Of a DNA stretch of 26,679 nt, positions 3,351 through 6,533 are shown in pieces. A model generated the notes under the pieces. The model saw only the letters and a program-made list of their open reading frames with translations. It did no database searches and had not been told where the DNA came from. Location of the stretch: the NCBI GenBank assembly GCA_964643165.1, contig CAZXPO010000001.1, forward strand, positions 1-26,679. Reading direction: 5' to 3'. Source of the DNA: an uncultured Gammaproteobacteria bacterium (lineage in GTDB: Bacteria; Patescibacteriota; Patescibacteriia; Patescibacteriales; UBA12465). How positions within the stretch are numbered: position 1 is the first letter of the stretch; every line of letters begins with the position of its first letter. A program made the translations under genes and the position numbers.

Positions 3351-4820
3351 ATGACCATTGATCGCGTCATCAAAAAATTTAATGATAACAACCCCGACAT
3401 TGATGCTAGTGTCTTGTATTTGGCTTATGATTTTGCTGAAAAAGCTCATCAGGGACAATTGCGTAAAAGCGGCGATTCATACATTACTCACCCTCTTCAT
3501 GTTGCTTATTTACTAGCCGAAATGAAAGCTGATTTAGCAACCATCACCGCTGGAGTTATTCATGACGTCCCAGAAGATACCGATAGAACAATTGAAGAAA
3601 TAAAAGAAAATTTCGGCTCAGAAGTTGCAAACCTAGTAAAAGGCGTGACCAAATTAGGAAAAATCAAATATCGCGGCTTGGAAAGATATCGTGAAAACTT
3701 AAAAAAAATGTTTTTGGCAATGGCGACTGACATTAGAGTGGTTTTTATAAAATTTTGCGACCGTCTACACAATCTCAGAACCCTAGATTATTTGGCGCCA
3801 GAAAAACAACAGCGAATTGCCAAAGAAACCCTGGAAATATATGCACCAATTGCTGGCATTTTAGGAATCTGGCGTCTCAAGTGGCAAATGGAAGATTTGT
3901 GTTTCAAATTTCTCTATCCAGAAGAGTTCAACAAGTTAGAATACAAATACGAAGTTGAAAAAAAGGCTGAAAGAAATAATTTTTTTAACATCATCAAAAA
4001 AATTCTTACACCGCAACTGAAAGATGCTGAAATAAAAAATGAAATTGAAGTCAGATTCAAGCATCTTTATAGTATTTACCAAAAAATGAAAAATAAAGAG
4101 CGGAATTTTGATGAGATTTATGATGTTTTTGCTCTGAGAATAATTGTCGAAAATATTAATGATTGCTACAAAACCCTTGGTATTATTCACACCATTTGGA
4201 AACCAAAACCAAATCGCTTCAAAGATTATATCGCTGTACCAAAACCAAACGGCTATCGCAGTCTCCACACCACCATTTTCGGTCCGGAAGGAAAATTGGT
4301 GGAATTTCAAATTAGAACCAAAGAAATGCACGAAGAATCCATTTATGGTTTGTCAGCTCATTGGTATTACAAAGCTAAACGACAAGAAGATATCAAAAAT
4401 CAACCAGCTTGGATCAAAGAAATTATTGATATTCAAAAAGAAATCAATGACACCAACGATTTTGTCAAAAAAATACAATTAGATGTTTTTAATGACCGAA
4501 TTTTTGTCTTTTCGCCAAAAGGAGATGTTATTGAATTGCCGGAAGGAGCAACTGCAATTGATTATGCTTATGCCATTCACAGCAAAATCGGCAATAGCGC
4601 CGTGAGAGCGATGGTGAATGAAAAGATTTCTCGTCTTGATCAAAAATTAAAAAATAGTGATGTTGTAGAAATTATCACCGAAAAAAACAAAAATCACCCA
4701 AGTAAAGATTGGCTAAAATTTGCCAAAACAAAAAAAGCAAGGGATTCAATTAAGCAACACGCCAAAAAATCAACTTTTGAAAGCATCAAAAAATATATTC
4801 CAGGGATTGGTAAAAAATAA
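3351..4820 (+). CDS. relA: RelA/SpoT homologue ((p)ppGpp hydrolase/synthetase): HD + synthetase + TGS, lacking distal C-terminal domains
   Basis: RKSGDSYITHP, IHDVPEDT (HD), YDVFALRI, RFKDYIAVPKPNGYRSLHT, EFQIRT, TGS motif FSPKGDVIELPEGATAIDYAYAIHS. Confidence 0.95.
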   Translation: MTIDRVIKKFNDNNPDIDASVLYLAYDFAEKAHQGQLRKSGDSYITHPLHVAYLLAEMKADLATITAGVIHDVPEDTDRTIEEIKENFGSEVANLVKGVTKLGKIKYRGLERYRENLKKMFLAMATDIRVVFIKFCDRLHNLRTLDYLAPEKQQRIAKETLEIYAPIAGILGIWRLKWQMEDLCFKFLYPEEFNKLEYKYEVEKKAERNNFFNIIKKILTPQLKDAEIKNEIEVRFKHLYSIYQKMKNKERNFDEIYDVFALRIIVENINDCYKTLGIIHTIWKPKPNRFKDYIAVPKPNGYRSLHTTIFGPEGKLVEFQIRTKEMHEESIYGLSAHWYYKAKRQEDIKNQPAWIKEIIDIQKEINDTNDFVKKIQLDVFNDRIFVFSPKGDVIELPEGATAIDYAYAIHSKIGNSAVRAMVNEKISRLDQKLKNSDVVEIITEKNKNHPSKDWLKFAKTKKARDSIKQHAKKSTFESIKKYIPGIGKK

Positions 4821-4821
4821 C

Positions 4822-4851
4822 AAAAAAGACTCCCGAAAGGAGTCTTTTTTT
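4822..4851. terminator. Bidirectional intrinsic terminator between convergent relA and rpsU
   Basis: AAAAAAGACTCC-CGAAA-GGAGTCTTTTTTT, with a T-tract on both strands. Confidence 0.9.
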
Positions 4852-4869
4852 ATTTTGAAAAATAAAAGA

Positions 4870-5109
4870 TTAACGATTATTATTCATCTGAGTTTCTTCT
4901 AATTTGCCAGTCTTACGTAAAAATTCTTTTTCTTTGCTAAGCTTGATGCTTGTCAAAGCGGAAATTTTTAGTTGGCGTTTGTTTTTTTTCGGTTTCAAGT
5001 GTTGAATAGAGCGAGCCTTCTCGAGCCTCTTACTATTTTTCAAGCCTTTTTTGAATTTTCTCAAAAAACTTTCGAAACTTTCACCAGGTTTTCTTTTAAA
5101 ATCAGCCAT
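4870..5109 (-). CDS. rpsU: 30S ribosomal protein bS21 (79 aa, extended C-terminus)
   Basis: KRKPGESFESFLRKFKK N-terminal pattern, highly basic. ATG 5109 chosen over GTG 5118 because that GTG lies inside the SD. Confidence 0.85.
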   Translation of the reverse strand: MADFKRKPGESFESFLRKFKKGLKNSKRLEKARSIQHLKPKKNKRQLKISALTSIKLSKEKEFLRKTGKLEETQMNNNR

Positions 5110-5115
5110 AAAATC

Positions 5116-5125
5116 CACCTCCCTT
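5116..5125 (-). promoter_or_regulatory. Very strong Shine-Dalgarno site of rpsU
   Basis: Minus strand TAG-AAAGGGAGGTG-GATTTT-ATG; GGAGGTG ends 6 nt before the ATG. Confidence 0.9.
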
Positions 5126-5126
5126 T

Positions 5127-6533
5127 CTAAGTATGTTTAATAATATTTATTAACTTGCTTTCATTATTGCTTAAATCTATTTTTTTTGCAAGTTTTTCCC
5201 TTATTTTTTTGATCGGCACAATTTCTTGAACCGTTGAATCCATATCGCGCATCAAAATAGTTTCATCCATTACTTCTTTTTTTCCCATTATTAGGGAAAT
5301 TTTTGCCTTAATTCGTACTGCTTCTTCCATTTGGGTTTTTAGGCTGTCTGTAGAAAAAGATTGGCGAATTTTGAAACCGGCTTGGCGTAATTCATCGAAT
5401 AATTGCAAAGATTTTAACTTAGCAACATCGCTTAGTTGAGCAATAAATACCAAATTGTCTTCAGTTCCTGGCAAAGGATAGTGATGATCACGCATTTTGT
5501 TGGCAGTTCTTTCCAAACCAATTGCCAAGCCAACCGCCGGAGATGATTTTCCTCCCATATTTTCCACCAAAGAATCAAAGCGACCGCCGCCAGCTAAGGC
5601 ATATTTTCCTTGAGCAACGCCAGCGTCATTGACTGGCCAGAATTCAAATACTGTATCGTTGTAATAGTTTAGGCCACGAACCAAGAAAGGATTAAAATTA
5701 TATGGAATATCTAATTCATCCAAGTATTCACAAACTTTTTTGAAGTGATCACGGCTTTCTTCTGACCAAAAATCGGCAATTTGCGGTGCTTCTTCACGTA
5801 ATTTGACGCAAGATTCTTCTTTGCAGTCCAAAAGACTGAGAATGTTTTTTAATAAATTAATTTTGCAATGGTGGCAAACTTTGGAACGGCGACCGCGTTC
5901 ACGATAGAAAGCAGCTAATTTGTGCCCATATTCCTTGCGGCACTCAGATCCACCCAAACTATTGATTTGTACTTGAATATTTATTCCCAAATCTTTGAAA
6001 AAATGATAAGCCAAACTAATCACCATCGCTTCCGCAATCGGTTTTTTGTCTTTGATAATTTCTATTTCAAATTGAGTGAATTGACGTTGGGAATTGTTTT
6101 GTAATTTTTCATTACGAAAAACCGAACCGATTGAAAAAACTCTCAAAGGTGTTTCAACTTCATCCAATTTTTGCTCAATGTAATGACGAATAATCCCCTG
6201 GGTCAACTCGGGACGCAAACACATTCTTTCATTTTTTTCACCAGCTAAAGCATATAACTCTTTTTCCTTAGTAATTCTGGTGCTTTTTTTGTATAAGTCA
6301 ATGTTTTCCAAAACTGGCGTTTCTAAATGCTTAAAACCATAACAAGCACAAAGCTCTTCTGCCTTGCAGCGAGCAATATCAAAATATTCGCTATCAGCAA
6401 TAGAATAATCTTTCATGCCAAACATTCTGGCATAACTTTTTTGAATCCTTCTTTCTGGCTTCTTAGCTAATTCCGGTTTTGCTGCCGAATGGTGACCGAC
6501 AGAATTAGTCTTTTTTTCTTTGGCTTTTTGCAT
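5127..6533 (-). CDS. hisS: Histidyl-tRNA synthetase family protein with divergent catalytic motifs
   Basis: ETPVLE, LRPELT, FRNE..Q....RQFTQ, LVRGLNYY, GGGRFD...MGG...PAVGLAIGLER and a C-terminal anticodon-binding domain. Family is certain; activity is not. Confidence 0.85.
   Translation of the reverse strand: MQKAKEKKTNSVGHHSAAKPELAKKPERRIQKSYARMFGMKDYSIADSEYFDIARCKAEELCACYGFKHLETPVLENIDLYKKSTRITKEKELYALAGEKNERMCLRPELTQGIIRHYIEQKLDEVETPLRVFSIGSVFRNEKLQNNSQRQFTQFEIEIIKDKKPIAEAMVISLAYHFFKDLGINIQVQINSLGGSECRKEYGHKLAAFYRERGRRSKVCHHCKINLLKNILSLLDCKEESCVKLREEAPQIADFWSEESRDHFKKVCEYLDELDIPYNFNPFLVRGLNYYNDTVFEFWPVNDAGVAQGKYALAGGGRFDSLVENMGGKSSPAVGLAIGLERTANKMRDHHYPLPGTEDNLVFIAQLSDVAKLKSLQLFDELRQAGFKIRQSFSTDSLKTQMEEAVRIKAKISLIMGKKEVMDETILMRDMDSTVQEIVPIKKIREKLAKKIDLSNNESKLINIIKHT

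Follow-up and report, generated by a model that had tools for sequence, protein, structure and literature searches.

In Flavobacterium johnsoniae, the anti-Shine-Dalgarno (anti-SD) sequence of the 16S rRNA is held in a pocket of the ribosomal proteins bS21, bS18 and bS6 (PMC7797042), and the bS21 gene, rpsU, has the one strong Shine-Dalgarno (SD) sequence, with ribosomes lacking bS21 translating rpsU faster (PMC9976891). In the same bacterium, cryo-electron microscopy shows that a 13-bp helix between SD and anti-SD sterically excludes bS21 (PMC13000457), and autoregulation of rpsU by bS21-lacking ribosomes has been described for the Bacteroidota (PMC7797042; PMC9976891; PMC13000457; PMC13000453). 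The survey that defined its signature, an rpsU pairing that is the strongest and lies below -13 kcal/mol, was applied to Bacteroidota only (PMC9976891). Here we analyze an rpsU locus from another phylum, the Patescibacteria (candidate phyla radiation, CPR), located on a 26,679-nt stretch of DNA (contig C1 in full, hereafter the window) from a metagenome-assembled genome (MAG) of Candidatus Falkowbacteria (590 kb in 118 contigs, 84% completeness, 36.6% GC). In the window, rpsU (4870..5109, minus strand) encodes a divergent bS21 of 79 amino acids (aa) and is preceded by an extended SD element (5116..5129, minus strand). Conservation and co-variation both lend good support to this element as a functional site predicted to pair with the 16S tail.

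The element, UAGAAAGGGAGGUG, complements the 16S 3' tail CACCUCCUUUCUA and has one extra, bulged G; the minus-strand leader around it reads ...ACTTAGAAAGGGAGGTGGATTTTATGGCT..., with GGAGGTG at 5122-5116 and the rpsU ATG (5107..5109, minus strand) 6 nt 3' of the element. The MAG has no 16S gene and its anti-SD was therefore inferred from relatives, among which the same-genus genome G004 and 15 of 17 relatives of the order retain a 16S end ...GGAUCACCUCCUUUCUAG, followed by GGAG. With the tail of the same-genus relative, CACCUCCUUUCUA(G), the element is predicted to form a 13-bp duplex in which one G is bulged, at -19.2 kcal/mol. The very strong rpsU SD of the sequence-only reading is thus real, although the pairing of about 10 nt then proposed was too short. 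The TAG at 5129-5127 both terminates the hisS-like gene lying upstream and supplies the first three bases of the SD element, an overlap found in this genus only.

To place this site among the other genes, crude gene calls (574 open reading frames, ORFs, of at least 70 aa; 84% coding) were used, and positions -22..-3 of each start were scored with RNAduplex, with -47..-27 as a mock region. rpsU ranked first of 539 starts against the short anti-SD (-16.4 kcal/mol, median -0.4) and second of 526 against the extended tail (-19.2 kcal/mol), the only stronger site being that of a pilin gene on contig C82. When both strands were scanned without regard to ORFs, 6 sites at -19 kcal/mol or stronger emerged, and an ATG-initiated ORF follows only two of these, rpsU and the same pilin gene. 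The other 22 coding sequences of the window (at least 70 aa) scored between +1.8 and -4.0 kcal/mol, in line with the earlier view that their upstream regions lack an SD. The accompanying claim that rpsU is the sole gene with an SD holds within the window and fails for the genome, where the pilin gene and a class of genes led by AAAGGAG(G) have sites of their own.

The genome as a whole is poor in SDs while the 16S rRNA of its relatives keeps the anti-SD, as in the Bacteroidota with rpsU autoregulation. At all thresholds between -2 and -12 kcal/mol, SD-like sites are rarer at starts than in the mock region (e.g., 46 vs. 93 at -6), a "depletion" that is no proof of selection against SDs since mock regions often fall in upstream coding DNA; SD 4-mers have almost no positional peak, and the G content is ~0.10 at -15..-5 of the start regions. 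Across the 526 start regions, T occupies -1 in 70%, A is enriched at -5, -6, -11 and -12, and G makes up 6-11% from -13 to -1. In this respect the starts are similar to those of SD-less Bacteroidia, with their Kozak-like adenine context.

Ribosomal protein genes were searched for comparable SDs, and none other than rpsU was found among the top-ranked sites. The starts of bS18 (70 aa, +0.1 kcal/mol) and bS6 (168 aa, -1.7 kcal/mol) both lack an SD, as they do in the Flavobacteriales. The bS6 protein (C26:588-854, minus-strand region, locus L311) carries a K/E-rich C-terminal extension of ~70 aa with an acidic tail at its end. In Bacteroidia, a C-terminal extension of bS6 helps to hold the 16S tail, and the pocket residues of the Bacteroidota are K/R37, F50, N56 and Q58 in bS18 together with W100, R103 and K107 in the C-terminal helix of bS6.

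The site upstream of rpsU is conserved across the family, the order, the class and much of the phylum. Within the order, 40 of 41 relatives, from 17 families, had an rpsU homologue, and the 39 leaders that were read, that of the window included, contained (C)UAGAAAGG-N-AGGUG in all but one case (38/39), 5-8 nt 5' of the start and at -13 to -21 kcal/mol. A further 67 Falkowbacteria leaders from the same family all reached -15.7 kcal/mol or stronger (median -18.4), against a median of -1.8 kcal/mol for 177 neighboring genes of these loci, of which 1% reached -12. At the class level, a lineage profile detected bS21 in 196 of 201 genomes, and 45 of 56 leaders, each from a different family, were at -15 kcal/mol or stronger; for the phylum, the profile detected bS21 in 154 of 201 genomes and 39 of 58 sampled family leaders were at -12 kcal/mol or stronger, with whole groups lacking the site. 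Conservation is highest in UAGAAAGG, which complements the extreme 16S 3' end. Its TAG was also considered as a coupling stop codon, and this was rejected as the reason for its conservation: it ends a long ORF in only 12 of 99 leaders and is not such a stop in the other 87.

The predicted helix has a median length of 13 bp across the order and class leaders. Its commonest form includes a single bulged mRNA base in mid-helix (24 of 39 order leaders and 17 of 56 class leaders), whose identity and exact place vary from leader to leader, and an uninterrupted 13-mer was seen in none of the listed family leaders. Such a recurrent mid-helix bulge or mismatch could be a protein recognition feature, which would fit a classical autogenous repression in which initiation is blocked by free bS21 bound to its own leader, either alone or paired with an anti-SD-like RNA. 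Such repression would also fit with bS21 naturally contacting the SD-anti-SD helix and with its reported binding to an SD/anti-SD mimic in OLE RNA (PMC12054373). The varying identity and position of the bulged base argue against such recognition, as does a leader that is unstructured on its own: together with the first codons it gains no stability over shuffled sequences (z +0.95), and in a set of 39 leaders the SD has a mean pairing probability of 0.44, no partner being conserved. Sequestration of the SD within the mRNA was rejected on the same folding result. An Rfam search of 4700-5400 with E up to 1 returned only sub-threshold matches, to the terminator hairpin downstream of rpsU, and no leader family. 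Small RNAs with an anti-SD loop were looked for as possible partners and none was found in this incomplete MAG, in which the single CCCUCCUUUCU match lies in apparent coding sequence and not in a hairpin-loop RNA. Taken with these results, we consider autogenous repression by free bS21 very unlikely. The locus does share with classical ribosomal protein autogenous control (S15, S8, L20, S4) a conserved cis element at the translation start, plausibly tying synthesis to ribosome assembly; it differs in that the rpsU element complements the rRNA rather than mimicking an rRNA binding site, and in having neither a conserved fold nor a match to an Rfam leader.

Natural variants of the 16S tail point to pairing between the two RNAs. 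In G036, the anti-SD is CACUUCC and the rpsU leader reads CUAGAUUGGAAGU (GGAAGU), which gives -15.4 kcal/mol against its own tail vs. -11.2 against the canonical one; this is an apparent compensatory change, and the one such case. In this genome, the tail CUUCC is followed by GGAAG, located just after the 16S 3' end. In G033, the rRNA has lost CACC (tail UAUCUCCUUUCUAG) and the rpsU leader has lost GGUG, keeping only CUAGAAAGG (9 bp); the pilin leader of this genome has lost its SD, and the pilin orthologue of G036 sits at a contig edge where it is unreadable. Finally, at the phylum level, three genomes (G266, G406 and G362, with variant tails listed for the first two and not for the third) possess the conserved motif of the 16S 3' end, with neither a canonical CCUCC nor an SD on rpsU.

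Compared with the Bacteroidota, the site of the window thus presents several of the published features of rpsU autoregulation. Its pairing is the strongest among ribosomal protein genes at -16.4 to -19.2 kcal/mol, below the survey threshold of -13; the helix with the 16S 3' end is extended, predicted at 13 bp here where 9-13 bp are known; and the site, conserved in its lineage, changes or disappears along with variant anti-SDs. Among the differences, the helix is here usually broken by a one-base bulge or mismatch, and sequestration of the anti-SD is here hypothetical. The locus also recalls the extended SDs of Bacillota such as Staphylococcus aureus (PMC13009471), where pairing likewise runs past GGAGG into the UUUCU(A) of a Bacillota-like 16S end; most genes use such sites in that group, however, vs. 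two in about 530 here.

The explanation that we favor is that the rpsU SD provides bS21 feedback through bS21-free subunits, a reading whose chances we regard as about even. At rpsU initiation, the SD element would pair with ~13 nt of a free 16S 3' tail, up to its ...CUA(G) end, while most genes of the organism would start without such pairing. The purpose would most likely be bS21 homeostasis, as in F. johnsoniae: the long helix would occupy the bS21 position of the 30S platform, forming easily on bS21-free subunits (freshly assembled, or having lost the protein) and slowly on replete ones, such that bS21 output would rise when bS21 is short and fall when ribosomes are saturated. The mRNA of the major pilin would be translated by the same route. 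Pairing in the cell, mutual exclusion of bS21 and the helix in this lineage and the resulting feedback are all inferred here, and two facts favor the last of these, namely that bS21 is the sole bearer of such a site among the ribosomal proteins tested and that the predicted helix is 13 bp long.

This model requires a mature 16S end of ...CCUUUCUA(G)-3'. In nearly all relatives (L002-L018), the tail CCUCCUUUCUA is followed by GGGAG or GGAG, which could pair back onto CUCC. This GGGAG/GGAG may be part of a pre-rRNA processing stem or, if the mature end lies further downstream, may alternatively form a cis hairpin masking the anti-SD.

A second set of observations weighs against the feedback reading, or at least weakens it, and begins with the pilin gene. 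This gene (C82:1414-1806, plus strand, locus L261; relatives L266-L289) encodes the major free-standing pilin of the type IV secretion system (T4SS) type, a secreted protein of 130 aa with a T4SS_pilin domain, and a comparable leader occurs in 25 of 25 genomes read (its own and 24 relatives, best free-standing orthologue in each). The pilin leader is mostly CUAGA[A/G]AGG[U/C]GGUGAA, predicted to pair at -21 to -23 kcal/mol, and complements the 16S tail with one central mismatch. The T4SS_pilin family has 11-16 copies per genome, its domain also heads two large ORFs of the window, and the tandem paralogues adjoining the pilin gene have no SD. Furthermore, about a dozen genes of the MAG carry AAAAAGGAG(G) at the correct spacing, most of them small and without a Pfam match, in the arrangement A-run, AGGAG(G/A), 5-8 nt, ATG; these lie on C10 (6685-7128 and 10641-11204), C16, C20, C22, C27, C67, C78 and C79. 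In 360 kb of G259, a genome from another class, 36 of 345 genes reach -12 kcal/mol or stronger vs. 3 in the mock region, and this SD-led ~10% includes an HU-like gene and genes of secreted proteins with GAAAGGGGGUG; rpsU, at -18.9 kcal/mol, is there among the top few and not unique. Given these SD-led minorities, the ribosomes are probably not SD-blind: SD pairing probably works for a minority of mRNAs, and with the anti-SD apparently open to some mRNAs, complete sequestration is unlikely. The Bacteroidota picture of rpsU as a single outlier on SD-blind ribosomes is hence not what we find, and the depletion of SD-like sites relative to the mock region may merely reflect A/T-rich start regions.

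Several individual genomes point in the same direction. G405 and G381 have CCUCC and yet an rpsU without SD, and G339 has the anti-SD CACUUCC with an rpsU leader devoid of any SD, and therefore lends no support as a second compensatory case. The 16S gene of G404 (C37:1841-1890) ends in CACUACAUUCU (GGAUCACUACAUUCU) without CCUCC, and its rpsU (L313) keeps the canonical UAGGAGGUG; since canonical tails occur in sister genomes of the family, an assembly artefact or an insertion may account for this tail, or G404 may be a real counter-example. The bS21 protein itself departs from the Bacteroidia form, whose signature combines Tyr54 with a C-terminal domain of lower basicity (PMC7797042). The C-terminal domain is here strongly basic (pI 10.1-11.5 and net charge +6 to +13 across 25 orthologues), a conserved Y/F ~22 residues past the KP motif falls inside a lineage-specific motif, and E[YF]LRK[IT]GK stands in place of the Tyr54/low-pI signature. 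The Bacteroidia pocket signature thus appears absent, as judged by C-terminal isoelectric point (pI) and motif position, without alignment to the F. johnsoniae protein. Beyond the Bacteroidota, bS21 is reported to aid initiation in Escherichia coli rather than hinder it (summarised in PMC9723584). The feedback that the sequence-only reading had drawn from Flavobacterium agrees with the published survey thresholds and with the 13-bp length, and parts from its model in the pocket signature and in rpsU not being unique. The checks proposed with that reading (SDs of other ribosomal protein genes, the anti-SD of the 16S and the SD of rpsU orthologues) did not overturn it, and on balance we regard it as partly supported.

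The same observations lend themselves to what is the main rival explanation, a generic "super-RBS" (ribosome-binding site), under which a minority of patescibacterial genes, mostly for small, very highly expressed or exported proteins, use strong SDs, rpsU belongs to this class, and all ribosomes read the site with no feedback by bS21. The comparable conserved site of the pilin gene, the dozen genes with AAAGGAG(G) and the SD-led HU-like and secreted proteins of G259 are what such a class would look like. Yet bS18 and bS6, the other ribosomal protein genes tested, have no SD, and no further ribosomal protein gene is among the top-ranked sites, even though ribosomal proteins are made in equal amounts, and the rpsU site (13 bp) is far longer than those of the AAAGGAG class. 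It is moreover kept phylum-wide, whereas the other SD-led genes are lineage-specific, and the protein concerned, bS21, sits on the SD-anti-SD helix and is the same choice as in the Bacteroidota. We consider a generic strong site without feedback possible, and less likely than the feedback.

The restriction to bS21 bears on another alternative, in which bS21 is needed for efficient SD-less initiation, and the long SD acts as a fail-safe that lets bS21-poor ribosomes translate rpsU while replete ones are not inhibited. This would explain why bS21 alone among the ribosomal proteins needs the site, and it is in line with F. johnsoniae ribosomes without bS21 initiating poorly on SD-less mRNAs (PMC9976891; PMC13000457). 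A fail-safe leaves the pilin gene unexplained, however, and sequence data cannot separate it from the feedback proposed above; we give it a low probability. Combining the bS21 feedback with the pilin site, it is tempting to speculate that Patescibacteria may run a "specialised-ribosome regulon", in which 30S subunits without bS21 would select the few mRNAs forming a ~13-bp helix, interrupted in the middle, with the entire 16S 3' tail. This regulon would consist of rpsU and the major pilin in Falkowbacteria, so that pilus output would be coupled to ribosome assembly; the central bulge or mismatch would be structurally required, and the circuit would be either of independent origin or far older than that of the Bacteroidota. 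We regard this extension as quite doubtful.

The identity and the start of rpsU were established from its orthologues. Taken singly, the protein falls under the curated cut-offs for the family (Pfam S21, PF01165, 16.2 bits vs. 27; TIGR00030, 16 vs. 29). A profile of 25 orthologues (A1) matched 26 distinct PDB sequences over residues 3-59, with a best E-value of 2e-7, and because all of these are bS21 chains we interpret this ORF, the only S21-like one in the MAG, as a divergent yet genuine bS21, with the conserved C-terminal motif E[YF]L[RK]K[IT]GK. An in-frame GTG at 5118-5116 falls within the purine tract of the SD element and is not likely to be the start; all orthologues open with M-A-D/E-F-K-R-K at the aligned ATG, hence our choice of the ATG at 5109-5107. 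Upstream lies the hisS-like gene identified by Pfam (5127..6533, minus strand). Downstream, a bidirectional intrinsic-terminator-like hairpin (4822..4850; 13-pair stem, T run on both strands) sits between rpsU and a convergent relA/spoT-like gene on the plus strand, and is the predicted end of the rpsU transcript. A weak sigma-70-like match, TTGCAA-17-AATAAT, occurs at 5163-5191 (minus strand), within the final part of the hisS-like gene and ~35 nt ahead of the SD element; this match could supply a separate rpsU transcript, and the promoter scan scored it no better than chance. Few metatranscriptome contigs, all of low depth, reach the rpsU region; one spans rpsU and its SD, and they are too sparse to inform on regulation.

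An SD-led rpsU of Patescibacteria or CPR was found neither in the cited papers on bS21 autoregulation nor by our literature search on these bacteria with SD and bS21. A previous study described bS21 as "frequently absent" from Parcubacteria and the anti-SD motif as missing in about half (PMC9297842); this reported absence of bS21 may be in part a detection artefact, given that the bS21 of this lineage escapes the Pfam and TIGRFAM cut-offs. Autoregulation of bS21 by specialised ribosomes, so far documented in Bacteroidota only, is the clearest example in bacteria of a single gene controlled by the composition of the ribosome. The rpsU and pilin leaders, with their natural bulge and anti-SD variants, offer concrete targets for testing it here. 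Finding the same signature across much of the Patescibacteria, a very large phylum whose members are mostly uncultured and have reduced ribosomes, suggests that competition between a long SD helix and bS21 may be a general or an ancient principle, not one peculiar to the Bacteroidia, and offers a reason why genomes poor in SDs would retain an anti-SD.

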